DNA of 47,341 bases from a virus: IMG/VR virus record IMGVR_UViG_3300045450_000074, positions 1-47,341 of that record; one strand, 5' to 3'. Every line of letters begins with the position of its first letter. The first letter of the stretch is position 1. The notes under the pieces were generated by a model. It was not told the DNA's origin, searched no databases, and saw only the letters and a list, made by a program, of their open reading frames with translations. Of this stretch, positions 1 to 47,341 are shown piece after piece. The position numbers and the translations under genes were made by a program.

Positions 1-127
1 AAGGCGTGATTACGATGGAGGAATATCGCACCGCCCTCCTTATCGGCCTTGAGCGCGAGGTCGAGGAATACGAGCGTCGGCTCTCCGTCCGCATCGGCGT
101 CCCGGTGACGTTAGGATGAGCGCCGCT
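1..127. repeat. 127-bp terminal overlap identical to 47215..47341 (circular-closure signature)
   Basis: Bases 1-127 (aaggcgtgattacgatgg...gatgagcgccgct) recur verbatim at 47215-47341. ORF 47007..47333 ends inside it and ORF 116.. starts inside it. Confidence 0.95.
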
Positions 128-2375: not shown

Positions 2376-4013
2376 ATGCTCGACCGCGAGCGGGTCGCAC
2401 GCGAGGGCGCGGCGATCCGCGAGCGCTGCTCGTCCCTGATCGAGTTCGTCCGCGAATTCTGGCCGGTCCTCGAACCGTCACGCGAGTTCAAGGATGGATG
2501 GGCGATCCAGGCGGTTTGCGACCACCTTGAGGCCGTGAGCGACGGCAAAATCCAATATCTGCTCATCACGATCCCGCCGGGCATGATGAAATCGCTTCTC
2601 GTCGCCGTGTTCTGGCCGGCATGGGAATGGGCGACGCGCGACGCCTCGCTCCGCTACCTCACGTCGTCGTTCTCGCGGCCGAACGTGATCCGCGACAACT
2701 CCAAGATGCGGAAGCTCGTCGAGAGCGAGAAATATCAGGCGCTGTTCCCCGAGGTGCGCCTCGATCCGACGAGCAACGCCAAGGACAAGTTCGAGAACCT
2801 CAAGACCGGCAACCGCGAGGGTCGCGCGTTTGAGAGCATGACGGGCGGGCGCGGCGACCGGGTCATTATCGACGATCCGCATTCGGTCGACTCGGCCGAG
2901 TCGGAGACGCAGCGCGAGGCGACGGTCCAGACGTTCCGCGAGGCGATCCCCGACCGCCTCAACGATCTCACGAAATCCGTGATCGTCGTGATTATGCAGC
3001 GGCTCCACGCCAAGGACGTCGCCGGCACGATCATTTCGCTCGGCCTTCCGTACGTCCACCTCAATTTGCCGATGGAATTCGAGCCGACGCGCGAGGTGAA
3101 CGGCCTCAAGGTCGACAACCGGTGCCGCACCTATGCGAACGACAATTCCCTTCTGTTCGAGGACCCGCGGACGGAGGAGGGCGAGCTGTTGTTCCCGGAG
3201 CGCTTCCCGGCGCCCGAGGTCGCGAAGCTCCGCCACGTCAAAGGCTCGTACGCATGGGCCGGGCAGTATCAGCAACGGCCGTCGGCCCGTGAGGGCGGCC
3301 TGTTCAAACGCGCATGGTTCGCGGGGAAGATCATCGCTCGCGCCGGTCTCCCGACCTCGGGCGTCAAGCGCGTGCGCGCCTGGGATTTCGCCTCGTCGAC
3401 CGAAGCGAAGGGCGATCCCGATTGGACGGCCGGCGTCCGCATGTTCCGGCACGGCACCGATTATTACATCGACAGCGTCGACCGCGACCGGCTCTCCCCC
3501 GGCAACGTGCAAGCGCTGGTCAAGACTCGAGCCGAGACCGACCCGGTCGGGACGATCGTCCGCATCCCGATCGACCCGGCTCAGGCGGGCGAATTCCAGG
3601 CGCAAAGCTACATCACCGCCCTCGCCGGCTATCCGCTCAAGGCCGAGCGTCCGGGGTCGGCCGGGAACAAGGTCGGCCGCGCGCTCCCCATGAGCATCCA
3701 GGCCGAATTCGGGCATATCTACCTCGTCAACAGCGGGCCGCCCGAGGAGGGCCTCGACGCGTGGATCGAGACGTTCCTCGACGAGCTATGCTCGTTCCCG
3801 ACCGCGGCGCACGACGACCAAGTCGACGCCGCAGCCGACGCGTTCAATGAGCTGGCTATCGGCGGCTCCCAAGAGTTCGCCTCGGCCTCCTCGGGCAAGT
3901 CGGAAATGCTCAAGACGGCGGAGCGTGACAGCCGATACGGGTTCGGCGATAACACGCCCAACACCGGGCGGGGATACGGGTCCGCGCCCTCCCGCATGCA
4001 AGGATTTCGATAG
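2376..4013 (+). CDS. terL: terminase large subunit
   Basis: ORF 2277..4013. Walker A-like PPGMMKS and Walker B DRVIIDDPH, with a C-terminal nuclease-like region with conserved Asp (AHDDQVDA). The start could instead be 2277. Confidence 0.9.
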   Translation: MLDRERVAREGAAIRERCSSLIEFVREFWPVLEPSREFKDGWAIQAVCDHLEAVSDGKIQYLLITIPPGMMKSLLVAVFWPAWEWATRDASLRYLTSSFSRPNVIRDNSKMRKLVESEKYQALFPEVRLDPTSNAKDKFENLKTGNREGRAFESMTGGRGDRVIIDDPHSVDSAESETQREATVQTFREAIPDRLNDLTKSVIVVIMQRLHAKDVAGTIISLGLPYVHLNLPMEFEPTREVNGLKVDNRCRTYANDNSLLFEDPRTEEGELLFPERFPAPEVAKLRHVKGSYAWAGQYQQRPSAREGGLFKRAWFAGKIIARAGLPTSGVKRVRAWDFASSTEAKGDPDWTAGVRMFRHGTDYYIDSVDRDRLSPGNVQALVKTRAETDPVGTIVRIPIDPAQAGEFQAQSYITALAGYPLKAERPGSAGNKVGRALPMSIQAEFGHIYLVNSGPPEEGLDAWIETFLDELCSFPTAAHDDQVDAAADAFNELAIGGSQEFASASSGKSEMLKTAERDSRYGFGDNTPNTGRGYGSAPSRMQGFR

Positions 4014-6182
4014 ATGGCTCTCCCTCCCGCGATCCGCCGCCCGCTTGAGGAGGCCGGGTTCCTCGCGCCGATCGCGCAGCCGGATCGCCTACCGACACGG
4101 CCCACCAACGAAGCGCCCGAGGCGCCGCCATCCATCGGCAACATGATTTCCCGGTCGGCCGATACGAGTTGGTTCCCGTCGAGCTATCTCAAGCTGCTCG
4201 CCGAGAACGACGACAGCGTCCTCAAGAGGGATGGCGGCGGCCTCAAGCTCTACGACGCGCTCCTCGACGACGACGTCGCATTCTCGGCGTTGCAGCAACG
4301 CCGCATGGCGATCACATCGCGCGATTGGGAGGTGACACCGGGCGACGACAAGGACCCCCGCTCCGTCAAGGCGGCGGACGAGTTCCGCGCCATGCTCAAG
4401 GAGGTCGGGTTCGACCGGGTGACGAACGGCCTCCATTACGGGGTTTGGTACGGCTACGCCATCGCCGAGGCGGTCTATTCGATCCGCGATTTCGACGGTC
4501 GGCCGATCGTGTGGCTCTCCGACCTGATCGTCCCCGATCGCCGTTGGTTTGGGTTCACGATGGAAGGCGAGTTGCGGTTCGTCACCCCGTACGCCCGCGG
4601 CCTCGACGACGAGACGCTCCCGCCGAACAAGTTTATCGTCGTCCGGACCGGCGGATCGCACGACTTCGCGTTCTACGGCCTGGGGCTGGCGCATTGGGCG
4701 TATTGGCCCATTTTCTTCAAGCGGTCGGCGCTCAAATTTTGGGCGCTCTACCTCGAAAAGTTCGGCATGCCGACCGTTGCGATCGGCTTCCCGGAGACCG
4801 AGCAGAACGATCAGGAGAAGCTCGACAAGCGCCTCGCCGCCGCGGTCGCGGTCGGGCAGGACCGGGCCGTCCTCGTCCCCGAGGAGACGCTCAAAAACGA
4901 CACGCTCAAACTGATCGAGGCCGAGCGCAGCGGCGCCGGCTCGTCCTCGTACAAGGATTTCGTCGGCACGAACGACGACGCGTTGATCCGCGTGATCCTC
5001 GGCCAGACCGGCACGTCGAAGGCGACCCCCGGCGGCCTCGGCGGCGACGGACAGGCCAAGAAGGACGAGGGGGTCAAGCGCGAGATCGTCAAGGCCGACG
5101 CCGACCTCATTTCCGACGCGATCCACAAGCTCGGCCGGTGGCTCACGACATGGAACCACGGCCCCGACGTGGCCCCGCCGAGCGTCTATCGCGTCCTCGA
5201 CGATGCCGAGGACCTCAACACCGTCGCCGAGCGTGACGTCAAGCTCAACGGGATCGGGATCAAGCGGACGGAGGACAGTATCCACGAGGTCTACGGCGAT
5301 GGGTACGAGATCGACCGTCTCAGCGAGGAGCAGAAGGCGGCCAACGCGTCGGCGCTTGCCGCGGCGAAGGCCGTTCCCGGCGCCCCAGGCGCCCGGCCGG
5401 CCGCGAACGACAACCCCCGCGCCAAGATCGCCGCGGCTCGCGCAGAGTTCGGCGTCGACGACGAGGCCCCGCTCTACGTCTATCGCCAGCTCAAGCCCGA
5501 GAGCGCCCGCGCGCTCATCGCATGGGCGGAGAGCGTCGGGATCAAGGCGACTGTCCCGGCCGCGGAAATGCACACGACGGTCCTTTACTCGAAACGGCCC
5601 GTCGATTGGTTCTCGCTCGGCGAGAGCTGGCAACCGGAGGTTACTGTTTCCAAGGGCGGGCCGCGCAAGATCGAGCGCCTCGGCGACAAGGGCGCCGTCG
5701 TCCTCCGGTTCGAGAACAGCGACATGCGCTATCGGCACGAGAGCATGGTCGAGCGCGGCGCTTCGCACGATTACGACGAGTTCCGCATTCACCTCACGCT
5801 ATCCTACGACGTGCCGGCCGACTTCGACCTCGATGCGATCGAGCCGTTCACCGGCGAGCTTAAATTCGGCCCGGAAATGTTCGAGCGGATCAAGGACAAG
5901 CCGTTCGATCCCGCCTCGCTCGACTTCGCGGCCGACGAGGAAGACGCGATCGACCGGCTCATTGCGAAGCTCGTCGAGGAGGCCGACCCCGTGTTCGCCG
6001 CCATGGGCGACGCGCTCAAGACCTCGTTGCAGGGGGTCAAGACGGTCGAGGGCGCCCGCGTCGCGATCCTTGAGGCGTTCGAGCGCATGCCAGTCGAGCG
6101 GCTCGCCGAGCTGACCGCCCTTCCCATGCTCGCCGTCCGTGCCGGCGCGCTGGCGGGGGCGGAGAACGACGTCAAAGCGTGA
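4014..6182 (+). CDS. portal protein (Mu gp29/DUF935 type) with an inserted 2H phosphoesterase-like module
   Basis: 722-aa ORF directly after terL with DUF935-like core motifs. At about nt 5466-5915 an insert carries HTTV and HLTL motifs, followed by a typical portal C-terminal tail. Confidence 0.9.
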   Translation: MALPPAIRRPLEEAGFLAPIAQPDRLPTRPTNEAPEAPPSIGNMISRSADTSWFPSSYLKLLAENDDSVLKRDGGGLKLYDALLDDDVAFSALQQRRMAITSRDWEVTPGDDKDPRSVKAADEFRAMLKEVGFDRVTNGLHYGVWYGYAIAEAVYSIRDFDGRPIVWLSDLIVPDRRWFGFTMEGELRFVTPYARGLDDETLPPNKFIVVRTGGSHDFAFYGLGLAHWAYWPIFFKRSALKFWALYLEKFGMPTVAIGFPETEQNDQEKLDKRLAAAVAVGQDRAVLVPEETLKNDTLKLIEAERSGAGSSSYKDFVGTNDDALIRVILGQTGTSKATPGGLGGDGQAKKDEGVKREIVKADADLISDAIHKLGRWLTTWNHGPDVAPPSVYRVLDDAEDLNTVAERDVKLNGIGIKRTEDSIHEVYGDGYEIDRLSEEQKAANASALAAAKAVPGAPGARPAANDNPRAKIAAARAEFGVDDEAPLYVYRQLKPESARALIAWAESVGIKATVPAAEMHTTVLYSKRPVDWFSLGESWQPEVTVSKGGPRKIERLGDKGAVVLRFENSDMRYRHESMVERGASHDYDEFRIHLTLSYDVPADFDLDAIEPFTGELKFGPEMFERIKDKPFDPASLDFAADEEDAIDRLIAKLVEEADPVFAAMGDALKTSLQGVKTVEGARVAILEAFERMPVERLAELTALPMLAVRAGALAGAENDVKA

Positions 6183-6373
6183 GGATCAGGGGCGGCACGC
6201 GCGGGCTTCTCTCCGGGATCGACGCGGGCCGGCTCGATCCGTTCGACGCCTACGTCTACGAGGAGCCGCACCTCCACTATCTCACGAGCGGAAAGCTCGC
6301 CAAGATGAAGCGCGAACAGCGGGCGCGGGAGAAGCGGCGCGCAAAGCGGCTTGCGTCCCTCCCGCCATTCTGA
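6179..6373 (+). CDS. hypothetical basic protein (64 aa)
   Basis: GTGA overlap with the portal stop. High GC3. Confidence 0.5.
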   Translation: MRIRGGTRGLLSGIDAGRLDPFDAYVYEEPHLHYLTSGKLAKMKREQRAREKRRAKRLASLPPF

Positions 6374-6427
6374 CAAACCGTCCCGGCCCGATGGTGTCCG
6401 CCCCCCGGTTCGGTCAGGCGCGTAGGG

Positions 6428-6466
6428 AAGGCCCGCCGTGGGAGCAACACGGCGGGCCTTTTCGTG
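6428..6466 (+). terminator. intrinsic terminator
   Basis: Perfect 13-bp stem, aaggcccgccgtg (6428-6440) paired with cacggcgggcctt (6448-6460). 7-nt loop, then a ttttc tail. Confidence 0.7.
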
Positions 6467-6512
6467 TCTGCGTTCCCGGCGTAACGATGTGGCCTCACCA
6501 ATGGAGGACCCT

Positions 6513-6692
6513 ATGCGCTCACCTTTCCGCTTCGCCCCGCTCGCCGCCCTCGCCCTTGCCGCATGCGGCGGCTCAGGCTCTCCGCCGCCGTATAGCAATG
6601 GCACGACGCCGGCCGGCGGGTCGTCGGGACAGCCGTCGGAGAACAATTCGAACGGATCGCCGGCAAAACAGCCGAACATGCCGGCGCAATAG
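6513..6692 (+). CDS. small lipoprotein (59 aa)
   Basis: GGAGGA RBS at 6503-6508. MRSPFRFAPLAALALAAC has a lipobox (LAAC). The mature part is Gly/Ser/Pro/Asn-rich. Confidence 0.7.
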   Translation: MRSPFRFAPLAALALAACGGSGSPPPYSNGTTPAGGSSGQPSENNSNGSPAKQPNMPAQ

Positions 6693-6920
6693 GTATTGCG
6701 CGAGGCGCGTAAGATCGGCATGGTCGAACGCGTTGACGGGGGATGCGCGACACCGCGTACCTGGGGGGCCGGCGAGTGATTCCGCCGGTTCCCTCGTCGA
6801 TATCCGGGATGACCACCACCCGCGGGTGCTTGTCAGTTACGCCCGGTGGCGCCTCGGAATAGGTACGAGGGCGGAGCGGCTCCACTGGCAACGGTGGGGC
6901 CGTTCGCGTATCCCCTCCCC

Positions 6921-8375
6921 ATGAGGTTCGACGCCACCGCCGGAGCCAAGCTCCTACCGCTCCAAATGCGGGCCGCCGACGTCGAGCGATGGCTCCTCGA
7001 CCGCGATCCCACCGCCTCGGGCGCATACGGGACGATCTCCAAGGAGGAATATGCGCGCTCGTTCACCGCCGCGCGCACCGCCGGGACCGATATTGCCGAT
7101 GACCTCTATTTCGCGTTCGTGGACGTCGTGTCCCGGTCCGGGACGGAGGACGATTTCTCCAAGCTCGTCATGCCGATCCTACGGAAAAAGGGATGGCTCG
7201 GCGGCGACGAGGGGCAGATCGCCCGACGGGTCGAGCTGATCTATGACACGAACCTCCGCCTCGCTCGCGCCGCGGGCCGGTGGGATCGCTATTGGTCGAC
7301 CCGCGCCGCGTTCCCGTACCTCCTCGCCTTCACGGCCGGCGACGAGCGCGTCCGCCATCCGCCCGAAAGCAAGCATTCCGACCACCGCGCGTGGGACGGC
7401 ATCCTCCTGCCGATCGAGCATCCGTTCTGGCGCGAATATTGGACCCCGCTCGGGTTCCGGTGCCGGTGCGGTATCCGCCAGCTCACCCGGTCGCAGTTCG
7501 CGCGCCTCAAGCGGGGCGAGACGAGCGAGAGCGATCTCGCCGCGCGCAAGGCCCGCCTGGGGCCGCCCGTGTTCCTCGCGCCCTCCCGGCCGATCGCGGC
7601 GCAGCTCGACGCCATGGTCGACGCGACGAACGCCTCGCGCATGCCGGGAATGCCGGCAGTCGATCCCGCCGAGACCGCGGCGGCCGGCCGCGCCGCCCTC
7701 TCGCGCGAGCAGCACGACGAGGTGACGGCGCGGATCACGGCGGAGCTTGACCGCGTCGGCCTCGGCGCGCCCGCCCCGCCCCCCGCGCCCGCGCCACAGC
7801 GCGCCGACGTCGAGAAGCTCGGCGGCGAGGCCCGATCCTACGTCCTCGACAAGGGGCGCAAGGCGGGCGTCGAATATCTCGTCGCGTTCGACGAGGCGAC
7901 CGGCCGGGAATATCAGCGGAGCAAGGGATCGCGATCGGCCGTCTCGTTCTCGCCCGCGCTGCTCTCCGCCATGCGGAACCCGGCGCGCTCGATCATCCTT
8001 CACCACAACCACCCCGGATCGACATCGCTCTCCGGCGTCGACGTGTTGCAGCTCAACGAGGTCGGCGCCCGCTCGATATGGGCGCACGGCCACAACGGGT
8101 CCTCATTCTACGCCGAGCGGGCCGGCGACACGCCGATCGCAAAGGCGACGTTCAACTCCATCGCCGAGCGCATCCGCGTCGAGCTGCAAGGCGCCGTCAC
8201 GGCGGGGACGATGACGGTCGACGACGCCGTCCTCATGCACAATCACCTGACGTGGCGCGTCATGAGCGACCTCGGCCTCCTGATCTATCGCGCCGAGCTG
8301 GCCGGCGCGAGCGGCGAGGCCTTCGCCCGGCATGCCGACCTGTTCCGCGCCATCATTGCAAGGCTCACCTCATGA
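6921..8375 (+). CDS. MuF/SPP1 gp7-type minor head protein fused to a C-terminal RadC-like JAB/MPN domain
   Basis: ORF 6846..8375. MuF signature GDERVRHPPE...WDGILLP...GFRCRCG, then a Pro/Ala linker, then EYLVAFDE...ILHHNHPGSTSLSGVD. The start may be GTG 6846 or ATG 6921. Confidence 0.85.
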   Translation: MRFDATAGAKLLPLQMRAADVERWLLDRDPTASGAYGTISKEEYARSFTAARTAGTDIADDLYFAFVDVVSRSGTEDDFSKLVMPILRKKGWLGGDEGQIARRVELIYDTNLRLARAAGRWDRYWSTRAAFPYLLAFTAGDERVRHPPESKHSDHRAWDGILLPIEHPFWREYWTPLGFRCRCGIRQLTRSQFARLKRGETSESDLAARKARLGPPVFLAPSRPIAAQLDAMVDATNASRMPGMPAVDPAETAAAGRAALSREQHDEVTARITAELDRVGLGAPAPPPAPAPQRADVEKLGGEARSYVLDKGRKAGVEYLVAFDEATGREYQRSKGSRSAVSFSPALLSAMRNPARSIILHHNHPGSTSLSGVDVLQLNEVGARSIWAHGHNGSSFYAERAGDTPIAKATFNSIAERIRVELQGAVTAGTMTVDDAVLMHNHLTWRVMSDLGLLIYRAELAGASGEAFARHADLFRAIIARLTS

Positions 8376-8581: not shown

Positions 8582-9253
8582 ATGTCTATGTCCGATTACC
8601 TCGAAAATGCGACGCTCAAGCTCCTGTTGCAGGGCATCGCGATTACCGGCCTCGCCGACAACGCCGGCTCCGCGCCATTCACCAACCTCTACCTCTCGCT
8701 CCACAGCGCAGACCCCGGCGATCCCGGCACTCAGGCGACGAACGAGATCGCATACGGCGGCTATGCGCGCGTTGCCGTCGCCCGCTCCACAGCCGGTTGG
8801 ACCGTCGTCAACAATGCGGCGAACCTCGCGGCCATCGCCAACTTCCCGCAGGGGACGAGCGGCGGCGGCGTCGCGACGCATTGGGCGCTCGGCGTCGCGG
8901 CGAGCGGCGCGACCAACGTGATGTTTAAGGGCGTGATCGGCTCGGCCGTTGGCCCGTTCACCGCGGCGACGACCGGGACGTTCACGATCCCCGGCTCCGG
9001 CCTCGTCGTCAACGATCGCGTGACGTTCCTATCCGTCCCCGGCTCGTCCCTCCCCACCGGGATCACGGAGGGCGCGCTGTATTTCGTCGCGAGCGTCTCC
9101 GGCGACGGGATCACGATCAGCACCACGCAAGGCGGATCGGCGGTTGCCATCACGGCGAGCGGTGACGGCCTCGCGTTCAAGGACGTCGGCGTCAACACCG
9201 GCGCCAACATCACGCCGCAGCTCGGCACCGGCACTACGATTACGCTGGATTAA
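8582..9253 (+). CDS. putative virion fibre-like protein (223 aa)
   Basis: ORF track. An N-terminal DYLENATLKLLL...YLSLHSADPG...GYARV pattern recurs in phage fibre-associated proteins (recollection only). Confidence 0.6.
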   Translation: MSMSDYLENATLKLLLQGIAITGLADNAGSAPFTNLYLSLHSADPGDPGTQATNEIAYGGYARVAVARSTAGWTVVNNAANLAAIANFPQGTSGGGVATHWALGVAASGATNVMFKGVIGSAVGPFTAATTGTFTIPGSGLVVNDRVTFLSVPGSSLPTGITEGALYFVASVSGDGITISTTQGGSAVAITASGDGLAFKDVGVNTGANITPQLGTGTTITLD

Positions 9254-9258
9254 TCGAC

Positions 9259-10728
9259 ATGGCGCTTCGCCGAGGGACGTTCTTCGACCTCCCGGCCGAC
9301 CTAAGCCTCGCCTTGTTCTCGTTCCCCATTTCGTCGTCGGTCATCCTGGACGGGAACGGGAAGATCGAGGGGATCAGGGACGTTATCGGCGACGGCACGC
9401 TTATTGCGCGCACCGCCGATTCGACGAAGCGCCACACCCTTGCCAAGATCAACGGGTTCGACAGCGCGTATAGCGCTGATACGAACAGCAACGGCATTCT
9501 ACTAACAGATTACTCTAAGCTCCCGGTCGGCGACGCCGAGCGTCATATGACTTGGGTTGTCGTGTCGCAGGACGGCGTCGTCGGCGGCTATCGTGGCGGC
9601 GGCCGTCAATATTGGATCGACAACCCGTTCCCCGACTATCGCCTCCGTACGAACGTGGCCGATTACACGGGAAGCGGCTCGACCAACAATAGCCAGCTCC
9701 ACGGGCTTTCTCTTAATCATCGAAACATATCGGGTGCGACTAGCCGATCGCAGATGATCGTCGACGGCTCGCAGCGGCTGGATCAACCGGTTACGCTCAA
9801 TACTTCGCTTGGGACGTACGGCATCAAGGGCGCGGAGCTGGCTTATTACACGATGAAAGGCAACACCGTGTTGCACTACATCGGCAAGCGCGCCGCAACC
9901 GTCGACGAGCAATACAAGATCGACAGCATCTGCCAGACGTACACCGGGATGACGCTCCCGGCTGGCCACCCTTACGCCTCGACGCCATGGATGGTCGACG
10001 ACGGGGCAGGGTCGGCGACGTTCGGCTCCTCGTTCACGTTCGCCATGGCGGTCGCTCAGGCGACGGCGATCATATCCGCGAACGGCGCGTCGAGCGCATC
10101 GTCGATCGCAATTGCGGCGGCCACCGCCACGAGCCGCGCCAACGGCATCGCCCAGGCGCAGACGTTGGCGATCGGCGCCGCCTCGCTCACCTTCTCCGGC
10201 GCGGGCGTGGCGCTTGCATCGGCTACGGCGGTCGCGGTCGGGTCGACCATATCCGCCGCCAGCGGCAACGGGGCAGCGCTCACCACGTCGGCCGCGGTGG
10301 CGCAGGGGATGACGATCGAGCGGCACCGCGGCGTGTCGCTCTCGTACGCCCTCGTCCGCGCCACGGCCGCCAGCATCGAGCAGGGCGTCGGCGTGGCGTA
10401 CGGCGCAGCGACGGCGATCGGATCGGCATCCTCGGCCGCCATCGCCAGCGGGTCGGGGTTCTCGCTCTCCTATGCGACGGCGGTCGGCGCCGGGGCGCTG
10501 GCTATGCGCGGCGATGGCGCGGCGATCGTCACCGCCTCGGCCACCGCCTCCGCCCGCGCGGCCGTGCGCGGCGACGGCTATTCGCTCGGCCTCTCCCGCG
10601 CGACCGCGACCGGGCCGGCGCAGTCCCGCCGCATCCCCCCGGACAGCCGCGGCGCGATCCTCTCCGACAACGCGTTCCGCTCGGCGATCCTTGCCGACAC
10701 CGGGCCGCGTCGCGTAACGGTCTCGTGA
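9259..10728 (+). CDS. putative fibre/receptor-binding protein with C-terminal Ala/Gly-rich tandem repeats (489 aa)
   Basis: ORF track. The N-terminal half has lower GC. About nine repeats of 20-21 aa lie at nt 10072-10620. Confidence 0.7.
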   Translation: MALRRGTFFDLPADLSLALFSFPISSSVILDGNGKIEGIRDVIGDGTLIARTADSTKRHTLAKINGFDSAYSADTNSNGILLTDYSKLPVGDAERHMTWVVVSQDGVVGGYRGGGRQYWIDNPFPDYRLRTNVADYTGSGSTNNSQLHGLSLNHRNISGATSRSQMIVDGSQRLDQPVTLNTSLGTYGIKGAELAYYTMKGNTVLHYIGKRAATVDEQYKIDSICQTYTGMTLPAGHPYASTPWMVDDGAGSATFGSSFTFAMAVAQATAIISANGASSASSIAIAAATATSRANGIAQAQTLAIGAASLTFSGAGVALASATAVAVGSTISAASGNGAALTTSAAVAQGMTIERHRGVSLSYALVRATAASIEQGVGVAYGAATAIGSASSAAIASGSGFSLSYATAVGAGALAMRGDGAAIVTASATASARAAVRGDGYSLGLSRATATGPAQSRRIPPDSRGAILSDNAFRSAILADTGPRRVTVS

Positions 10729-11124: not shown

Positions 11125-11369
11125 GCGAGCAAGCCCCCTTGTTGGGACAGGCGAACAACGGCGACCGCTCGCGCGTGTCGGTCGGCAAATTCACCGGGAT
11201 CGCCGGCATTCGGCGCCGGCCGCTCGGCCGCGAAGTCGCCTATTACGGCGAGGCGCCCTCGCGCTTCCCGGTCGCGATCACGATCGGCGACGAGGCGACG
11301 GAGGCGACCATGCGGATTGACAGCAAGGTCAACGGGTTCGCCGTCCTATGGGTGCCGGACGCCATCTAG
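11121..11369 (+). CDS. hypothetical protein (82 aa)
   Basis: ATGA overlap with the upstream gene. Last gene of the rightward block. Confidence 0.55.
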   Translation: MSEQAPLLGQANNGDRSRVSVGKFTGIAGIRRRPLGREVAYYGEAPSRFPVAITIGDEATEATMRIDSKVNGFAVLWVPDAI

Positions 11370-11672
11370 CGCCATGCCGCGCAGCTCGTGCGGCGTGAGG
11401 CCCCGGCCGGCGGTCGCCGGGGGCAGATAGCGGGGAACGATCCGGATCATCGTCTCGAGTCCGTGGCAGTGCCAGCAATCTAGCCGCTCAGGCGCCGGCT
11501 CCTTGACCTCGTCCCGCGCCCCGCAATCGCACGCCATGCACGAGACCGGCCACCGCGGGCCGACGAGCGCCGAGACGGCCGGCGGGGGCAGCGGGGCGGC
11601 CTTCGGCGACCGGACACGCTTCGCCGCCGGCTTCACCGCGAATAGGTCGGGGGCGTCGAACAGGTCGGTCAT
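11346..11672 (-). CDS. hypothetical zinc-ribbon protein (108 aa)
   Basis: Internal ATG of ORF 11346..12089, with ATGA overlap to the GNAT-like gene stop. CMACDC...CWHCH cysteine pairs. Confidence 0.5.
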   Translation of the reverse strand: MTDLFDAPDLFAVKPAAKRVRSPKAAPLPPPAVSALVGPRWPVSCMACDCGARDEVKEPAPERLDCWHCHGLETMIRIVPRYLPPATAGRGLTPHELRGMALDGVRHP

Positions 11673-12133
11673 AGGACGCGCCGCCATCGGCCTTTTGCGC
11701 GTGGATCGACCGCCGCCGGCCGCGCACGTCCAGGGCGATCCCATTCCTCGGCCGCCGTCTCGCCCATATACTCGAATCCAGCAGCGCGAAGGGATCGACC
11801 GTCCTCGTCGGGGAGCGTGTAGGTCCACGCCTCGCGATAGCCGAGCGCCTTTCCAGCCCGGCACAGCGCACCGTACAACATGGAACAGGCGGGCGCGGCG
11901 TGATCGCCGAGGCCGGGAAGGTTGGGGAGCGCGGCGCAACGCGTGATGACGAACCGGCCGGTTCCAAGCCATACCCTCGGAGGATTGCCGGCAAGCGCCG
12001 CGCCAACGCGACAGCCGTCGAGTTCGACTGCTACCGCGAACAGCGCACCATGGACCCGCGGCAAGTGACGGTGAACGTCGGACACCCATGCGCGGGCCTC
12101 ACGACCCGTGATCGGAGCGAGGCAATAGCTCAT
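11669..12133 (-). CDS. GNAT-like acetyltransferase-fold protein (154 aa)
   Basis: ORF 11669..12184 with an internal ATG at 12133 (ATGA overlap). The pattern ITRCAA...SMLYGALCRAGKALGY..TYTL..E.G.SLRAAGF...KGRW is typical of a phage GNAT-like family. Confidence 0.6.
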   Translation of the reverse strand: MSYCLAPITGREARAWVSDVHRHLPRVHGALFAVAVELDGCRVGAALAGNPPRVWLGTGRFVITRCAALPNLPGLGDHAAPACSMLYGALCRAGKALGYREAWTYTLPDEDGRSLRAAGFEYMGETAAEEWDRPGRARPAAVDPRAKGRWRRVL

Positions 12134-12312
12134 AGATCGAGCGTTCCATTCACCCATGTCGCCGGCCGCCCCGCCCGTCGCCACGCCTCAATTTCCGGCC
12201 GCGAGAGCGTGTTGACCCCGGCCCGCGCCGCCCGCGCGATGACGTGTTGAGGCGGGGGCAGGAGCGCGAACATATTGCGCGGCCGGGCGGTCGGGAAGCG
12301 CGCGAAGCTCAC
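12130..12312 (-). CDS. hypothetical protein (60 aa)
   Basis: ORF track. GTGA overlap upstream and ATGA overlap downstream. Confidence 0.45.
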   Translation of the reverse strand: MSFARFPTARPRNMFALLPPPQHVIARAARAGVNTLSRPEIEAWRRAGRPATWVNGTLDL

Positions 12313-12500
12313 GGCCGCGGATCAGCGGCGACCGGGACGCACGCGATCGTGACCCCGCCCCCGCGCGAGATCGCGTCGACGGCCTTCTCGGCGATCGTGC
12401 GCGCGGTCGCCTTGCACGAGGCCTCGTCGGCGAAGGTCGTCGGGGCGAATGAGACGCCGGTCGTGGCGATGATGACGAGGAGAAAACGGTTCATAGTCAT
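12309..12500 (-). CDS. small secreted protein (63 aa)
   Basis: AAGGA RBS. The signal-peptide-like N-terminus is MNRFLLVIIATTGVSFAPTTFA/DE. Confidence 0.6.
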   Translation of the reverse strand: MTMNRFLLVIIATTGVSFAPTTFADEASCKATARTIAEKAVDAISRGGGVTIACVPVAADPRP

Positions 12501-12512
12501 TCCTTTCGGGGC

Positions 12513-13184
12513 CTATCCCCATTGCTCCGCCATCGCCTTTGCGATGCCGGGATATGTTGTCGAGCGCTCAGACCAACGATCAGGCGACGGGCCAAGCGCA
12601 TTTTGCCCGGAGTCCGTCTGATTTCCCCACCGCTCGACCCCGGTCCCGAACAAGCCGAGTTGCGGCCGGCCGTCATCGACTAGGCGCGGTTTTGCGCGTC
12701 CAGTGGGGCGGAGATTGGCGAGTTTGCGACGCCATAAGACGGTAGCCTTGCTGGCGTCCTCGCCGAAATTAAACGGCTGAATGGTCTGCGGCAGTGCGAG
12801 GCGAGGCCTCACCTCCGTCCCGATGATCCCTTGCGGATTTTCGACCGCATAACCGGCGTCACTGCCCTCCTCGTCAACCCATTGGTCAAGCAGATCGAAT
12901 AGGAGCTTGGTCTCATGGACAGCGCGCAGGGTGGACGCGTGCCGCCCGTAAATCCTGTGGTTCCAATGCAAGCCGGCATTGTTGAGAAACGTGCAAGTCG
13001 GGTGCGCGATAACACGACGCGCACCGCGAAGCCCTCCCGCACGGATGAAGGCGAACACGTCTTCCACGATATGAGGGCCTCCCCGCCGAGCTGGCCGAAG
13101 ATCGACGGAGGTCGCCTCGTGACCGCGCACCGCGAAGGCGTCCCGCACGGCTCCGCTTTCCTCGAACAGGACAACGACCTTCAT
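12513..13184 (-). CDS. putative DNA methyltransferase (C5-cytosine-like fold, 223 aa)
   Basis: Internal ATG of ORF 12513..13634. Has LFEESG, HPTCTF (PC-like) and ENP (ENV-like) motifs and a C-terminal RS.TYPGIAKAMAEQW. Confidence 0.55.
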   Translation of the reverse strand: MKVVVLFEESGAVRDAFAVRGHEATSVDLRPARRGGPHIVEDVFAFIRAGGLRGARRVIAHPTCTFLNNAGLHWNHRIYGRHASTLRAVHETKLLFDLLDQWVDEEGSDAGYAVENPQGIIGTEVRPRLALPQTIQPFNFGEDASKATVLWRRKLANLRPTGRAKPRLVDDGRPQLGLFGTGVERWGNQTDSGQNALGPSPDRWSERSTTYPGIAKAMAEQWG

Positions 13185-13681
13185 GCACGAACCCCGGCAA
13201 GCCGCTTCGCAATCGTCAACGCCTTGCGCGCGGGGGACGGCCGGGGGAGCGTGCGCGCGGCGCGGCATAGGGCGTCGCAGCGGTTGTTCCATCGGGCGTG
13301 TTCGGAATGATCGTCGGGCTTGTGACCCGGTATCCATTGCGCGTCGACGCCGATCCGACGGTCGTCCTTGATCCGGTGGACCACGGCGACCGCCTTGGCC
13401 GCCGACGAGTGTTGCTTGCGCGTATAGGTCATGTTGATCCGGTCGACCGCATGCCTCGAATCCGAATAGACCCGGACGGTCGTCCCGGCCGGCGCGTGGC
13501 CGGCGCGCACGAGCTGATGCAACGCGTTGGCGATGGCGCGGCATTCCGCCGTGGCGCTGCACCGCAGATCGTCGCGCAGCCGGCCGGACAGCTCGATAGG
13601 GAGCTGACCCTCGACGATCGCGACCGTCGCCCAAGTCGCAACCCCGTCCTTGATCCCGGCGTCGGTATAGAGGCGGATCAC
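13181..13681 (-). CDS. RNase H (RNase HI-like, 166 aa)
   Basis: GTG start overlaps the upstream stop. Has IRLYTDAG, SATAECRAI, VYSDS and GH...N..CD motifs. Confidence 0.75.
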   Translation of the reverse strand: MIRLYTDAGIKDGVATWATVAIVEGQLPIELSGRLRDDLRCSATAECRAIANALHQLVRAGHAPAGTTVRVYSDSRHAVDRINMTYTRKQHSSAAKAVAVVHRIKDDRRIGVDAQWIPGHKPDDHSEHARWNNRCDALCRAARTLPRPSPARKALTIAKRLAGVRA

Positions 13682-14196
13682 GCGCGGCGGCCCATAGCGA
13701 GGCCGGCCATTTCGATCAGCTCGTCGAGGTTGACGACGGCCTCGCCGCCATTGGGCGAAGTGATGATCCACAGGCTGGCGCCGGTCGACGGCGTACGGCG
13801 CACCTTCCCGCCGATGCGCTGGATGGCGAGGATATAAGCCCCGATCCGCTGATCCTCCGCCACCTCGCGCGCACGCTTGATCGACGCTTGCGCCCGCTCC
13901 CGCTCCTCGCGGATGGCGTCGACCCGCGCCGCGGTCTGACGGCGGAAGGCCTCGCGCAGATGCCGGTCGACCTCCGCCTTGAAAATGGCGTCGACGTCCA
14001 TCGTGGGGCGCTCAGGTCGCCACGACGGCCGCTCCGGCTTCGCGCGCTGGCGGCCGGGAACGTCGAACAGGTCGAGGGACAGTCCGGCCGCCTCCGCGAT
14101 CCGTGTCCCTTGCGCGATCGCGTTCGACCGCTCGCCCTCGAACGTCGTCGAGCGCGCGAGGGCGAAACACCGCTCGGCCTTCTCGTGAGCGCTCAT
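13678..14196 (-). CDS. hypothetical protein with DUF2786-like N-terminus (172 aa)
   Basis: ORF track. EKAERCFALARSTTFEGERSNA resembles DUF2786. Confidence 0.55.
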   Translation of the reverse strand: MSAHEKAERCFALARSTTFEGERSNAIAQGTRIAEAAGLSLDLFDVPGRQRAKPERPSWRPERPTMDVDAIFKAEVDRHLREAFRRQTAARVDAIREERERAQASIKRAREVAEDQRIGAYILAIQRIGGKVRRTPSTGASLWIITSPNGGEAVVNLDELIEMAGLAMGRRA

Positions 14197-14351
14197 CGCA
14201 GGAGCCGCCGGAGCTGCTCGGCGCCCGCGTCGGACAGGCTCGCCGCCAGCCGGCGGAGGTCGAGATATTCCGGGAGGCGGACGACGTCGCCGCGCGCGGA
14301 GTCGGCCACCGCGTTGACCGCGTCGCGCACCTGATCGCCGAGCGAGCGCAT
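14193..14351 (-). CDS. hypothetical protein (52 aa)
   Basis: Internal ATG of ORF 14193..14447, abutting the upstream stop (TGATG). Confidence 0.4.
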   Translation of the reverse strand: MRSLGDQVRDAVNAVADSARGDVVRLPEYLDLRRLAASLSDAGAEQLRRLLR

Positions 14352-14581
14352 CAACCGATCAGCCCGAATAAGTACGCGAGGCCGAAGCCGACCGCGGCGA
14401 TCACGATCCACGCGATCAGCGCGGAGACGCAGCCGCGGACCGACCATTCGAGGACGTAGGGAGCGCCGACCGGCGGGCGTTCGCGATAGTCACGCAAGGC
14501 CGGGAGGCCGGCGTCGACCTCCGCACGCGCCTCCTCGACCGTCATATCAACGGGATATGGTCCGACGTAGCGGTCGTTCAT
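14351..14581 (-). CDS. C-terminally membrane-anchored small protein (76 aa)
   Basis: ORF track. The hydrophobic tail is ALIAWIVIAAVGFGLAYLFGLIG. Confidence 0.55.
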   Translation of the reverse strand: MNDRYVGPYPVDMTVEEARAEVDAGLPALRDYRERPPVGAPYVLEWSVRGCVSALIAWIVIAAVGFGLAYLFGLIG

Positions 14582-14763
14582 GGCAACTCCTTGCGGCGCT
14601 TGGCGCGCTCATAGTCAATGACGAGGCGCTCGTCGCCGGCATCGAGCCGGGCGGCGGCCTCGGCGGCGGCAACGGACGTGTGAGGGAGGTTCCCCCATGC
14701 GCCCGGCTTGGACAGGTTCGCCCCGGTCGAGCCGGGATAGGTCGTGACGACGTAGCGGATCAC
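14578..14763 (-). CDS. hypothetical protein (61 aa)
   Basis: ORF track. GTGA and ATGA overlaps with its neighbours. Confidence 0.45.
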   Translation of the reverse strand: MIRYVVTTYPGSTGANLSKPGAWGNLPHTSVAAAEAAARLDAGDERLVIDYERAKRRKELP

Positions 14764-14930: not shown

Positions 14931-15298
14931 GCGATCCGCCGATAACGAAGCGTGTCGACCGGGGCATTCGCGAACGCGGCTTGAGCGCGAGCCTCGTCGG
15001 CCGTCCCGACACCCCATGCAACGCCGTCGTCATAGAGATACTCGAACAGGGCGTCGGGGTCGTGCTGATCGAGCTGATCGACCGTGAAGGAATTGTTGAG
15101 CGCGCGGAGCCGGTTTGCCTCATCGCGCGCCTTGAGCGTCGCGGACGCGAGATTGATTTCGAGCCAGCTCCACCGCCCCGCCGTCGTCGACGAATTGGCG
15201 ATCGTCCGCAACTGCCGTTGCGTCATGGTCTGAAACACCGCGCTCTTGCGAGCGGTCTCGGCTGCAATCTGCTCGTTCACGGTCGGCGCGGTCGCCAT
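14927..15298 (-). CDS. hypothetical protein (123 aa), first gene of the antisense cassette
   Basis: Internal ATG of ORF 14927..15415, preceded by a GAAGGA RBS. Confidence 0.6.
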   Translation of the reverse strand: MATAPTVNEQIAAETARKSAVFQTMTQRQLRTIANSSTTAGRWSWLEINLASATLKARDEANRLRALNNSFTVDQLDQHDPDALFEYLYDDGVAWGVGTADEARAQAAFANAPVDTLRYRRIA

Positions 15299-15457
15299 CG
15301 TCGTCAATCCTTCGCGTTGTGCGTAAGAACCATTGCGCCAGCTCGGCGCGGATCGCAAGCCACAATCTACGCGGCGTGCGTAAAAAGATGCGGCGCCCGG
15401 ATTGCTCGCGGGCATGCAGCCTTATCGCCACCTCGCGCGCGGGGTATCTCTCCGGCC
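15299..15457. promoter_or_regulatory. divergent regulatory region (antisense cassette versus head operon)
   Basis: 159-bp gap between divergent starts. Contains tgcgtaag (15319), tgcgtaaaaa (15377-15386) and the 19-mer cgcgggcatgcagccttat (15407-15425), which also occurs at 20703-20721. Confidence 0.5.
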
Positions 15458-16417
15458 ATGAGCAAACGTTGGATCGAGGCCTTTCGCATCGGCGGCAAGG
15501 CAAGTCGCGGGATCAAGCCCGAGCATTTGGCCGAGGTCGTCACCGACGATTTCGGCGCGAACCCCCGCGCGCTGTGCTTCGGCCACCCGAAGTCCGACGA
15601 CCCGGCCGCCGGCCTCATCACCGGCGCCAAGGTCGAGGGAAACTCGCTCATGGTCGAGGTGGACAAGCTCTCGCCCGAGGCGATCACGGGGATCAAGGAC
15701 GGGAAGTGGCTCAACCGCTCGGCCGCCTTTTTCGACCCGCACCACGAGGCGAACCCGCGCCCCGGCAAATGGTCGCTCCGCCACGTCGGCCTCCTCGGCG
15801 CCGCGGCGCCCGGCATCCCCGGCATGGGATCGCTGCAAAAGGCCCTCGCCTTCGACGCCGACGACGAGCTAATCACCGAAGGCGATCCGGCTGACGCCGT
15901 CATCTTCGCTGGCGCCCCGACCGAAACGCATTTCATTTTCGAGAGCAAGGAACCGACCATGGACCCGAACGACAAGAAGCCCGACGCCGCGCAGATCGAG
16001 CGCGAAAACGCCTTCGCGGCGCGGGTTCGCAACCATTTCGAGGCGAGCAACAAGAGCGCAATCAATGCTCTCGTGCTGGCCGGTAAGGTCCTCCCGGCCG
16101 AGGTCGACGGCCTCACCACCTCGTTCAACGCGCTCGACCCCGAGGGCGAGGAGCTGACGTTCGGCGCCGGTGACAATACCACCAAGGCGACCGCCGTCTC
16201 GCATCTGCTCGCGTTCATGGCGTCGGCCCTCCCGAAGCGCGTCGACGTCTCCGGCCAGCGCAAGTCGCCCGAGACCCAGTTCGACGCCAAGGGCGGCGAG
16301 ACGTCGGCCAATCCCCAGGCCGAAGCGCGCCGCCTCTCCGCCGAGGCCCGCGCGCTCATGGCCAAGGACCCCGGTCTCACGTTCGAGGCCGCGCTCGAAA
16401 CCCTCTCGGCCGACTAA
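15458..16417 (+). CDS. capsid scaffolding protein/prohead protease (P2 gpO / Mu gpI-like)
   Basis: Internal ATG of ORF 14981..16417. MSKRWIEAFRIGG...GHPKSDDPAAG...RHVGLLGAAAPGIPG resembles the gpO family layout. Position is upstream of the capsid gene. Confidence 0.75.
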   Translation: MSKRWIEAFRIGGKASRGIKPEHLAEVVTDDFGANPRALCFGHPKSDDPAAGLITGAKVEGNSLMVEVDKLSPEAITGIKDGKWLNRSAAFFDPHHEANPRPGKWSLRHVGLLGAAAPGIPGMGSLQKALAFDADDELITEGDPADAVIFAGAPTETHFIFESKEPTMDPNDKKPDAAQIERENAFAARVRNHFEASNKSAINALVLAGKVLPAEVDGLTTSFNALDPEGEELTFGAGDNTTKATAVSHLLAFMASALPKRVDVSGQRKSPETQFDAKGGETSANPQAEARRLSAEARALMAKDPGLTFEAALETLSAD

Positions 16418-16861: not shown

Positions 16862-17827
16862 ATGGCTCAGGCCCCTTTCGTCATCACTCCCGCGCTTGTC
16901 GCCATTGCGGTCGACTATTCGGGGGTCAACCGCACCGCCCGCGGCTACATCGCCGACCTCGTCGCGCCGCGCATGCGCGTCGACGCGCCGTTGTTCCGCT
17001 ACCCCCAGTACAAGCTGGAGGAGGCGTTCACCGTCTACGACAATCAGGTCGACCGCCTCGGTCGCCTGAACGAGATCGTCGAGAGCGCGACCGAGACCAC
17101 GGGCGCCACGCTCGACTATGGTCTGCTCGAAAAGGTCCCGTTCCGCGACGAGGCCGCGGCCCGCGCCGCGTCGATCCCCTTCCCGCTCAAGGCTCGCGCC
17201 GTGCGGAACGTGATCGACAAGAATCAGCTCGCCCGCGAAATCCGCGTCGCGTCCATGGTGACGACCGCCGGCAACTATGCCAGCGGCTACGTGACCGCGG
17301 TCGGCGCGACGAAGTGGTCGGACCCGTCGGTCGATATCCCGGCGATCGTGATGGATCAGATCGCGGCCATGCTGATCCCCGGCAATGTCGGCACGACCTC
17401 GCGTCGCGTGATGAACATGCTTCGCCGCCACCCCAAGATTTCGACCGCGCTTGGCGGCTCGGCGACGTCGGGTCGGATCGCGACCGAGCAGGAGGTCGCG
17501 ACCGTCCTCGGCCTCGAACGGATCATCGTCGGCAACGGGTTGAAGCAAACCACGAAGCGCGGGCAGACCGTATCGACCGGCAATATCTGGCCGGATTTCT
17601 TCGCGATCCACTACCAGGGCGCGCAGGGTCCGGACGGGACGACGCTCGACGGCGGCTCGCCCAACTTCCTCACCACGTTCCAGTGGGGCGACGTCGTCTC
17701 GGGCGAGTTGCCCTATCGGCCGGGCGAATTGGGCCTGTGGGGCGGCGTCGGCGTTCTCACCGGCGAGAGCATCGTCGAGAAGGTCGTCGCGCCGTTCGCG
17801 GGCGCGATCTTCACCGGCGTTCTCTGA
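16862..17827 (+). CDS. major capsid protein (gpE-like, HK97 fold)
   Basis: ORF track. Size (321 aa), position after the scaffold and decoration genes, and gpE-like sequence pattern. Confidence 0.85.
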   Translation: MAQAPFVITPALVAIAVDYSGVNRTARGYIADLVAPRMRVDAPLFRYPQYKLEEAFTVYDNQVDRLGRLNEIVESATETTGATLDYGLLEKVPFRDEAAARAASIPFPLKARAVRNVIDKNQLAREIRVASMVTTAGNYASGYVTAVGATKWSDPSVDIPAIVMDQIAAMLIPGNVGTTSRRVMNMLRRHPKISTALGGSATSGRIATEQEVATVLGLERIIVGNGLKQTTKRGQTVSTGNIWPDFFAIHYQGAQGPDGTTLDGGSPNFLTTFQWGDVVSGELPYRPGELGLWGGVGVLTGESIVEKVVAPFAGAIFTGVL

Positions 17828-22649: not shown

Positions 22650-22954
22650 CCGAGCTGGAAAAGGACTGCGCGCGGTTCGGGATCGACCCGGCCGCGTTCA
22701 ATCGCAAACGCCCCGATGAGCAGGACGCGACGCCGGTATGGCCGGACATGCTCAATTCGTTCGCCCTCTTCTGTGATGCGCCGTGGAATTGGGTGACGGT
22801 CGGCCTCGGCGGCGTTGTCCGGACCAATATCAGCCGGATTGAGCTTGAGGCTTCGGCCCGCGGCCTCAACGTCGAGTATACCCCGGCGATTTTCGCCGAC
22901 GTTCGTATTATGGAGGACGAAGCACTCAAATTTTGGAGCCGCCGCAATGGCTGA
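22194..22954 (+). CDS. tail assembly chaperone frameshift product (G-T-like, -1 PRF)
   Basis: The -1 frame is open from 22538 to 22954. G_GGA_AAC at 22565-22571 is in the correct zero-frame phase. Confidence 0.7.
22565..22571 (+). other. -1 programmed frameshift slippery heptamer G_GGA_AAC
   Basis: Zero-frame codons are GGA AAC (R-E-G-N). After a -1 slip the reading is GGG AAA, continuing into ORF 22538..22954. Confidence 0.7.
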
Positions 22955-25900: not shown

Positions 25901-26828
25901 CTCAACAAACGTAAAAATCGGCACGTACAAGGATCAAATCCGCGTCTCGACCAACGGGACACCGATCGGCGGCAAGGGGTCGTCGGGCGCGATCACGTTC
26001 AAGGACGAACAGTCGGCCGTCGAATATGCGATCAGGGATGCGATCTCCGATGGCGTGTTCGGGGGGTTGTCCGACGCCGTCGTGCGCGCGCTCAAGGGCA
26101 ACGCGGACATTGACAAGGCCGTGTCGGAGGCTCTCGGCGTCAAGGCGTTGGAGGCGCAGCTCGGCGGCACGAAGGACGCGATCAAGGCCGTCTTCGACGA
26201 GGAGGACAAATCCGCGAAGGAACGGTTGCGGCTGGCGCGGGCCTATGGTCTCGACGTCGCAGCCGTCGAGAAGCTCAACGCCGAACAGCGCACGAAGCTC
26301 GTCGACGACACGCTCAAGGCGCGGGTGGGATCGCTTTCGGAGTTCCTGAACAACCTCAAATTCGGCGACCTCGCGGAGGGGACCGCGGCCGACAAGCGGT
26401 CCGCGCTGCTCGATCAGATCAAGCAAGTCCAGAAGGATGCCGAGGCCGGCAAGGACGGCGCCGCGGATCAGCTCACCTCCCTCTATCAACAGCTCGTGAC
26501 GAACAGCCGGGACGCCTTCGGCACCGCCGGGCCGGAGTTCACGACCGATCGCAGCAACGCGCAGTCCGGCGTCGAGCGCGTGATCGCGATGGAGACGGAC
26601 CGGGTCAATCAGGCGGCCGGCATCACCGCGGCAGCGGCAGCGACGACGAGCGCGGTCCAGGCGGGCAATCAGTTGACGAGCGAGACGAATGATCTCCTCG
26701 CGCAGCAGACCGCCGAGCTTCGCGCGACGAACGCGCTCCTCGCCGGACGGATCGGCTATGGCGACAACGGCGCCGGGACCGATTATGGCATCACGGCCCG
26801 CCAGCCTAATAAGTTCGCCTTCCAGTAG
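22947..26828 (+). CDS. tape measure protein (1293 aa)
   Basis: Internal ATG of ORF 22815..26828. Ala/Gln-rich coiled coil with Gly-rich hydrophobic segments. Positioned after the chaperone pair. Confidence 0.9.
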   Translation: MADFDLSARISLDASDVVRDGAEGERAIEGIGKASKDAAAGSRQLETASAAAAKAQATAATAATNNAKSLVDLARQEREAARAALDAARQRAQAEARATAPGRVTLTPSNPSVTLSPGSGTAARDVQQATAANEALAAAILRAEAAEARFEAASRSSATAVAAEAAAQDRLGASLGRTTAAAATLVGAEASAAAGAEELARAQNGAAAAAEAGAQSSARAASTVAAAQTRVQSATTGATRAHNENARAANDNAAAANRAAFGARNLGQQVGDFATQVSLGGSVVQAFSAQVGQAGFAMSEMGGKIGAVGRFLTGPWGVALTVASLVLAPFVSKLFEGGNAAEEQAKRLDQAAQAADSYGNVQSILGKIIDLQTGKIKTQNVALIQQIKLLAQANILKAQKERQTLQDGVRGFGEVTGGETFEDIGGAAASANPLLNFVNNALRRGQQIGPLKKVLEDYIQLTNTPGVSQTALDRGLVATTRALDGLSRAGRIGKRDLIDAKQAVLSLATNLNDEDANKLALRAANGEPLDPLLKPYKADPKAKKPPKPKKPKVDTTTPREAEDIQRINEEFDRTPTLIDRAAQATRKLDKIIADLSKRKPPGFEKLIADANAAKETIQTGLQRPYLDFIRDQQQALDVQKLLTAGRVDEANALKTVQSLQATMGPLTDAQKDAILATNQALRAEQRELDVVRAKNAKYVEALGSIKGIVEDATQAFVRGDLGQLIKSPGKILDAFQTLQGRKLFDGLFGDAFRDLEDQANGTSVVKDASARMASAVDKASASIAKLGSAAESAAGAVAGTPATGAAGGTTTNAEGDIIVTGKRDPIATALGRVGEKVAGLFTNPENAARIGQSIGKFAGKGLQGAATGSIVAGVGKALGVNLSQTGSQLGGAVGGILGGIKGVTSALGPLGAALTPALSVLGGIVGKLFGKTKTASAGVMISDGQVSAGAAKGTSSRLAGASGLAGSVSDGIANIAQQLGAQLTGSTNVKIGTYKDQIRVSTNGTPIGGKGSSGAITFKDEQSAVEYAIRDAISDGVFGGLSDAVVRALKGNADIDKAVSEALGVKALEAQLGGTKDAIKAVFDEEDKSAKERLRLARAYGLDVAAVEKLNAEQRTKLVDDTLKARVGSLSEFLNNLKFGDLAEGTAADKRSALLDQIKQVQKDAEAGKDGAADQLTSLYQQLVTNSRDAFGTAGPEFTTDRSNAQSGVERVIAMETDRVNQAAGITAAAAATTSAVQAGNQLTSETNDLLAQQTAELRATNALLAGRIGYGDNGAGTDYGITARQPNKFAFQ

Positions 26829-47333: not shown

Positions 47334-47341
47334 GCGCCGCT
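47215..47341. repeat. second copy of the 127-bp terminal overlap
   Basis: Identical to bases 1-127. Confidence 0.95.

Follow-up and report, generated by a model that had tools for sequence, protein, structure and literature searches.

A Mu-type phage portal protein carrying an inserted Acb1-family phosphodiesterase module

Domain architecture of the portal protein

The stretch of DNA analyzed here (the window) is the whole 47,341-nt virus record IMGVR_UViG_3300045450_000074, and this report concerns its portal gene (4014..6182, + strand). According to the single open reading frame (ORF), Pfam matches and an AlphaFold2 (AF2) model, this gene encodes a protein of 722 amino acids (aa) built of a Mu-type portal core, a linker, an Acb1-family module and a C-terminal helical tail. 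A perfect direct repeat of 127 nt occupies both ends of the window (1-127 and 47215-47341), a sign that the assembly is circular and the genome, at 47,214 bp, complete; the G+C content of the phage is 66%. The portal frame consists of 722 uninterrupted codons, and the identical protein recurs on a Logan contig that was assembled independently and is circularly permuted (SRR35356220_5689, 47,244 bp), in agreement with the first-pass annotation of this DNA, which had described a continuous frame free of stops or shifts. That annotation had also judged the portal long for its family. This too holds, as Mu gp29 has 512 aa and most relatives lacking the insert have 503-571 aa (one has 625).

The core matches the Portal_Mu profile (PF06074, also DUF935) over aa 78-428 (4245..5297, +; E=1e-77). 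It is followed by an Ala/Pro-rich linker (aa 432-484; 5307..5465, +), delimited from the model and the alignment, which closes with a conserved R-A-E-F-x-A-x-D just before the module. The module itself, assigned as an Acb1-family 2H phosphodiesterase by Pfam (PF23474), a domain model and Foldseek, covers aa 485-630 (5466..5903, +), and a conserved four-helix tail runs from F638 to the end of the protein (5925..6182, +; alignment of 116 homologues, model helices at 643-714). Among the PHROGs, the protein matched both phrog_113 (portal) and the 2H family phrog_755, which bears the label "RNA ligase"; in phrog_146, a second portal family, the C-terminal part of the profile spans the same Acb1 segment. 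In the full-length AF2 model (predicted local distance difference test, pLDDT, 82.7), the module forms a separate unit between low-confidence linkers at 455-466 and 636-640. Foldseek matched this model to the portals of JBD30 (E=5e-16) and Mu (E=4e-13) through the core and to the Acb1 structure 7t26 through the insert. Upstream of aa 485, no convincing ATG or GTG with a ribosome-binding site was found that could serve as an internal start for a free Acb1.

Acb1-family enzymes adopt the 2H fold, are metal-independent and linearise the cyclic di- and trinucleotides of the type used by CBASS (antiphage signaling based on cyclic oligonucleotides). The Acb1 profile, whose curated cutoff is 27 bits, scored 119.7 bits over aa 486-628 of the portal (E=1.1e-34; positions 2-139 of the 144 in the profile), while no LigT model of Pfam matched the protein. 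An AF2 model of aa 476-640 (pLDDT 88.2; predicted template-modelling score, pTM, 0.81) was compared by Foldseek with the PDB. The best matches were the apo and product-bound structures of Acb1 from Erwinia phage FBB1 (7t26 and 7t27; E=7e-9 and 1e-8), with target-normalised template-modelling (TM) scores of 0.73-0.74, followed by 9q2y, a Burkholderia phage BCSR5 phosphodiesterase deposited as Acb1, and then by E. coli LigT and other 2H enzymes. Both approaches bear out the first-pass view of the insert as a 2H module nearer to Acb1 than to LigT (Pfam E=1e-34; 7t26/7t27 ranked above LigT), and the structural comparison proposed at that stage, a Foldseek search of an AlphaFold model against Acb1 and LigT structures, returned the 2H fold with Acb1 first.

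The catalytic tetrad can be read directly in the DNA. The first H-x-T (H520/T522, in MHTTVLYS) lies at 5571..5579 (+) and the second (H593/T595, in IHLTLSY, after GASHDY) at 5790..5798 (+); the His codons at nt 5571 and 5790 are 73 residues apart, exactly as first noted. Aligned with FBB1 Acb1, Y488 corresponds to Y12, H520/T522 to H44/T46 and H593/T595 to the second HxT, and GASHDY of the portal module corresponds to GASYDY. In the model, each HxT motif begins a beta-strand. In Acb1 the tetrad is the acid-base catalytic centre, and the enzyme further has aromatic residues for stacking and a lid at its C-terminus (Hobbs et al. 2022, PMC9117128; the residue numbering of that paper is offset relative to the FBB1 genome sequence). 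Among the 95 portal-embedded homologues described below, H520 is kept in 93, T522 in 93, H593 in 95 and T595 in 89, with Ser in a further five. Since overall identity to the window protein is only 38-74% among them, retention of the tetrad argues for a maintained enzymatic function. Y488 is 99% conserved as well, while further stacking and lid positions of FBB1 (W74, F107, W147 and E141) could not be aligned reliably.

Compared with the Acb1 proteins of T4 (gp57B) and FBB1, the module thus has in common the 2H fold, the HxT/HxT tetrad, the tyrosine of the LYV motif and GAS-x-DY before the second HxT. It differs in that they are free proteins of about 150 aa, whereas the module is one domain of a portal of 722 aa, in which it occupies aa 485-630. 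It is only about 24-29% identical to FBB1 Acb1, and where Acb1 has its C-terminal lid, portal-type modules carry a nearly invariant F-G-P-E-x-F-E motif of their own. Two HxT motifs alone could arise by chance; judged on its sequence, the segment as a whole is not a chance resemblance. From the sequence and the models, the insert is very probably an active Acb1-family phosphodiesterase.

We then sought homologues of the portal among 5.8 billion proteins and retrieved 197. Both Pfam domains were present in about 100 of the best 120 homologue clusters (680-786 aa), while a minority of homologues, of 503-625 aa and 50-66% core identity, matched Portal_Mu only. In the alignment of 116 homologues, the segment at aa ~485-630 is present in 95 and absent from 21 (503-625 aa), and these 21 retain the conserved helical tail from F638 on; tail residues including F638, A640, I646, P659, G674 and R682 are at least 90% conserved across all 116. 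The Acb1 module is therefore a clean insertion. This alignment of DUF935 portals substantiates the earlier description of a discrete insert between portal core and C-terminal tail, and the 21 homologues without it answer the objection foreseen there, namely that the segment might be a fixed structural part of the family. On a neighbour-joining tree of the portal core, the presence and absence of the module require at least 13 changes; the module is thus accessory, repeatedly lost or gained, and dispensable for portal function, a pattern typical of anti-defence cargo.

Conserved motifs flank the insert on both sides: R-A-E-F-x-A-x-D (aa 476-483, nt 5439-5462) and x-F-[SAT]-A (aa 636-640, nt 5919-5933). 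In relatives lacking the insert the two motifs are adjacent (for example RRRAEFDAQTS-FSAAEEE in P0107), so the F-x-A motifs are older than the insertion; this rules out that they are a duplication created by it. As read from their sequence, they may be maturation cleavage sites.

Within bacterial genomes, the full Mu-type fusion was found in only four Sphingobium genomes (two isolates and two metagenome-assembled genomes), all confirmed with Pfam, and ordinary Mu-like prophages matched through the core only. A sphingomonad-like alphaproteobacterium is a plausible host for this phage of 66% G+C.

The module on other portals and capsid proteins

A tblastn search of the module against 50,697 phage records placed it within annotated portal genes of Synechococcus phages Ssp-JY39 and Yong-M2-251, of many Rhizobium phages (RHEph04/05/06 and the RHph series), of Pseudomonas syringae phages phiPSA1, MR15 and psageK9, of Sinorhizobium phage HMSP1-Susan and of Pseudanabaena phage Pam3. 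Identity to the window module ranged from 33 to 51% by tblastn and was 51% for Ssp-JY40 and 40% for phiPSA1 by BLASTP. The six cultured-phage carriers examined have a portal of another family, Phage_portal_3 (PF06381), of 596-621 aa, with Acb1 at the extreme C-terminus and no tail behind it. BLASTP detected no similarity between the portal cores of Ssp-JY40 or phiPSA1 and the core of the window protein. With modules 40-51% identical on dissimilar cores, the same Acb1 subfamily sits on unrelated portal scaffolds. The Phage_portal_3 proteins (Pam3 gp3, PDB 8hds; phiPSA1 gp44; RHEph04 gp10; Ssp-JY39; Ssp-JY40; HMSP1-Susan) thus share with the window portal the Acb1 subfamily and a linker that joins the module behind the portal core, and differ from it in portal family, in the terminal position of the module and in the absent tail. 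The module goes unmentioned in the records of these carriers and in the Pam3 structure paper. Of the 621 residues of the Pam3 portal, 442 are built in the cryo-EM model 8hds, and the module is not among them; 8hds was also absent from the Foldseek matches of the domain-only model. An unbuilt module is in keeping with a domain that is flexible or detached.

An exhaustive profile search of the module through 1.84 billion cluster representatives returned 3452 representatives at E<=0.001 and 1046 at E<=1e-30. The 82 closest comprise 47 Phage_portal_3, 8 Portal_Mu, 3 Phage_portal and 1 Phage_portal_2 proteins (about 72% portal fusions), together with 5 XkdF-type prohead proteases (Peptidase_S78_2), 3 PBECR3 and 3 ADP-ribosyltransferase proteins. 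Almost all carriers are hence capsid-internal proteins, which we read as selection for a capsid-internal carrier. Some portals bear further cargo (Phage_portal_3 with Acb1 and a Zeta toxin; Phage_portal_3 with an FAD/pyridine-nucleotide oxidoreductase and Acb1), and giant proteins of 1500-1750 aa combine the Acb1 subfamily with NUDIX; the library proteins with extra cargo or giant size are P0136, P0199, P0224, P0172 and P0230. Two Acb1 matches labelled "prohead protease" in GenBank, Roseobacter phage DSS3P8 gp129 (150 aa) and ZHS_4 of Edwardsiella phage vB_EpM_ZHS (199 aa, encoded between the terminase and portal genes), turned out to be mislabelled standalone Acb1-like proteins. Genuine fusions of Acb1 to XkdF-type proteases do exist in the metagenomic library.

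Fusions of this kind have been recorded before. Iyer et al. 2017 (PMC5512222) reported computationally found 2H domains fused to portal and MuF domains, proposed that they degrade defence nucleotides and described such polyvalent proteins as packaged and injected. Precomputed Pfam annotations and a PHROG portal profile likewise already contain the portal-Acb1 fusion. The first-pass remark that no portal-embedded Acb1-like domain had been described therefore does not stand, and the internal insertion with a retained tail in the Mu-type portal is at most a minor architectural variant. In the sense of Iyer et al., the portal is, by its domain composition, a "polyvalent" virion protein, a structural portal domain fused to an enzymatic effector. 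Like the proteins treated in that paper, it pairs a virion structural domain with an effector enzyme, and its phage is of the terminase-portal class; the paper differs in that it precedes the naming of Acb1 and reports no biochemistry. The Acb1 family was defined experimentally in 2022 with free-standing proteins only (PMC9117128). Literature searches centred on Acb1 turned up no mention of portal fusions, and the word "portal" is absent from Hobbs et al. 2022 (PMC9117128).

Genes surrounding the portal gene

The small terminase gene (1775-2362) of the head module and the large terminase gene (2376..4013, +; phrog_38 E=2e-80, Terminase_6C) precede the portal gene, the latter immediately, and this position assigns the portal gene to the late head operon. 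A conserved 64-aa ORF (6179-6373) overlaps the portal stop codon. It is followed by about 470 nt (6373-6846) that hold no convincing ORF, a gap with comparable counterparts in related contigs (L011 and L012). Rfam and tRNA scans of the window gave no match.

The next gene (6846..8375, +; gene-caller start 6921) encodes a MuF-like minor head protein, supported by phrog_220 ("minor head protein and DNA pilot", E=5.5e-40) and a weak Phage_Mu_F match. Within its extra C-terminal region of about 200 aa, which is RadC/JAB-like in character, lies the JAMM/RadC-like HxHPx6SxxD motif HHNHPGSTSLSGVD; the RadC Pfam match over this motif is weak (E=0.0045) and below the cutoff. Products of this gene measure 285, 484 and 645 aa across related phages. 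From these sequence features, the MuF-like protein looks like a second variable cargo carrier, so that two capsid-internal proteins of this phage would carry variable enzymatic cargo. RadC domains are listed among polyvalent cargo (PMC5512222), which fits the MuF-like neighbour.

Further downstream are a Gp80-like gene, whose product resembles the fiber I protein gp80 of Ralstonia podophage GP4 (8582-9253, +; PF23140, E=9e-14), and a gene for a 489-aa protein without a family match (9259-10728, +). Both sit in the head module of an otherwise long-tailed-looking phage. Between the MuF/Gp80-like genes and the head protease, the head module is interrupted by a minus-strand island (11346-14763) with genes for a Mom-like DNA modification protein (11669-12184, -), a DNA methyltransferase (12513-13184, -) and an RNase H (13181-13681, -), alongside small ORFs; it is likely an anti-restriction island. 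The head module resumes with a 478-aa head maturation protease (14981..16417, +; phrog_976 E=7e-40, no Pfam match) and the major head protein (16862-17827), after which come adaptor, tail and lysis genes. A 1337-aa protein without a family match (22815-26828) is possibly the tape measure by its size and position.

Possible delivery with the virion and alternative readings

The portal is the ring that DNA passes on its way into and out of the capsid. Portal C-termini face the capsid interior, and each head contains 12 portal copies. Every procapsid would consequently be made with 12 copies of the module inside. The comparison with Mu gp29, a member of the same Pfam family encoded in the same gene order (terminase, portal, MuF), suggests what may follow. 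Residues 65-342 of gp29 align with aa 80-372 of the window portal, and the Mu virion structure is without the last 124 residues of gp29, a loss put down by its authors to protease I cleavage (PMC11915804); the first-pass statement that the Mu portal is trimmed during head maturation thus finds support in the literature. By this alignment, the residues missing from Mu are equivalent to aa ~420-722, the whole linker-Acb1-tail region. Both portals extend C-terminally past the core, and in Mu this extension is not seen in the mature virion structure; gp29, at 512 aa, differs in having no enzyme there. By analogy with Mu, the head maturation protease encoded downstream is a candidate cutter of the portal C-terminal region.

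These considerations outline a sequence of events in which the module would be co-assembled with the portal into the procapsid, detached during head maturation, retained in the head and carried into the next host with the DNA, where the pre-made enzyme would remove the alarm nucleotide before phage gene expression. Because portal C-termini face inward, a head protease gene is present and almost all carriers are capsid-internal, this is the reading we find best supported, at slightly less than an even chance: the portal would bring 12 copies of the enzyme into the head, these would probably come loose at maturation, and they would reach the next host along with the DNA. The substrate is inferred, as are cleavage, retention of the module and its delivery. 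A more specific proposal, in which the portal serves as a delivery vehicle, the head protease frees the module with or without its tail, and about 12 retained and injected enzymes erase alarms before expression begins, is more tentative and would on balance be doubted. Its targets would be CBASS signals, possibly also cyclic triadenylate (cA3) from type III CRISPR systems.

Known encapsidated anti-defence proteins that are injected with the genome include T4 IPI*, T4 Alt, P1 DarA/DarB and MuF-toxin fusions. They resemble the proposed route in being pre-made head proteins that enter with the DNA and act against host defence, and differ in being separate internal proteins or MuF fusions that target restriction or transcription. 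To our knowledge, none of them is a signal-degrading phosphodiesterase demonstrated to be delivered in this way.

Several points weigh against the favoured reading. We found no experiment in the literature on the activity, virion presence, cleavage or delivery of a portal-fused member. If a fragment were cut off within the prohead, it could leave as scaffold fragments do instead of being retained, and a domain that is not cut from the portal remains behind with the emptied capsid, where it is of no use in the next host. The unbuilt module of the Pam3 portal is explained equally by flexibility. With the lid and stacking residues unaligned and the FGPE-x-FE motif in place of the lid, the substrate may differ from that of Acb1. 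Finally, CBASS is reported to fire late, at prohead formation (preprint 10.64898/2026.03.04.709575), so that an enzyme delivered early is not obviously needed.

The last point leads to the alternative that survives best, in which the same enzyme acts in the producer cell and the fusion makes the production of the enzyme, its timing and perhaps its location depend on head assembly. Free portal subunits or an expelled C-terminal fragment would then degrade the signal late, when capsid assembly proteins and the prohead protease trigger CBASS. The position of the portal gene in the late operon, directly behind the large terminase, is consistent with this, as is the report that in T4 infection CBASS becomes active no earlier than about 14 min, through prohead protease activity (10.64898/2026.03.04.709575); the standalone Acb1-like gene between terminase and portal in some phages (ZHS_4) further suggests that late co-expression alone could be selected. 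A separate late gene would, however, give equal timing and leaves the in-frame fusion unexplained. Action in the producer cell also fails to account for the near-exclusive choice of capsid-internal carriers (four portal families, prohead protease and MuF/PBECR-type polyvalent proteins), and 12 portal copies per capsid are a poor route to much enzyme. We therefore regard it as a minority possibility.

It is improbable that the module acts on RNA or other nucleotides instead of CBASS signals, whether as a Usb1-type RNase, in the healing of 2',3'-cyclic phosphate ends or on other defence signals (cA3, 2'-5' oligonucleotides). An RNase role was offered for portal- and MuF-fused 2H domains by analogy with the PBECR RNases (PMC5512222), and the "RNA ligase" label of the PHROGs family points the same way. 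The module does not clearly keep the lid and base-stacking residues of Acb1, and portal-type modules form a subgroup of their own, with 40-51% mutual identity against 24-29% to T4-type Acb1. On the other side, the Pfam Acb1 score lies far above LigT-type models, which standalone relatives match only weakly, Foldseek places Acb1 structures first, and a PHROGs scan of the larger window genes turned up no RNA ligase partner.

That the fusion is an assembly or frameshift artefact, or that the module is decayed and merely structural, is effectively refuted: the exact sequence is represented by only one contig in each of two sources, but the same 722-aa protein occurs on independently assembled Joint Genome Institute (JGI) and Logan contigs, the architecture is common to about 95 clusters at 90% identity as well as to cultured phages and Sphingobium prophages, and the catalytic residues are 94-100% conserved.

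The idea of portal-borne 2H enzymes is eight years old and the enzyme family has been characterised, so the gain to be made is experimental confirmation, not a new concept. To a specialist the portal-Acb1 fusion would come as no surprise, but a clean hypothesis follows from it that can be taken to cultured systems, among which Pam3, phiPSA1 and the Rhizobium RHEph phages are tractable carriers, and for Pam3 cryo-EM maps and virion mass spectrometry data exist. As the fusion is common, portal annotations in many genomes hide a probable anti-defence enzyme. Were the module freed from the portal and injected as proposed, it would be the first demonstrated injected signal-degrading anti-defence enzyme, and the long-known C-terminal processing of Mu-type portals would gain a function. 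Should the portal-borne enzyme prove active and enter with the DNA, infection would have anti-CBASS activity in place from its first second, and accounts of the phage-host arms race built on gene expression would miss it.

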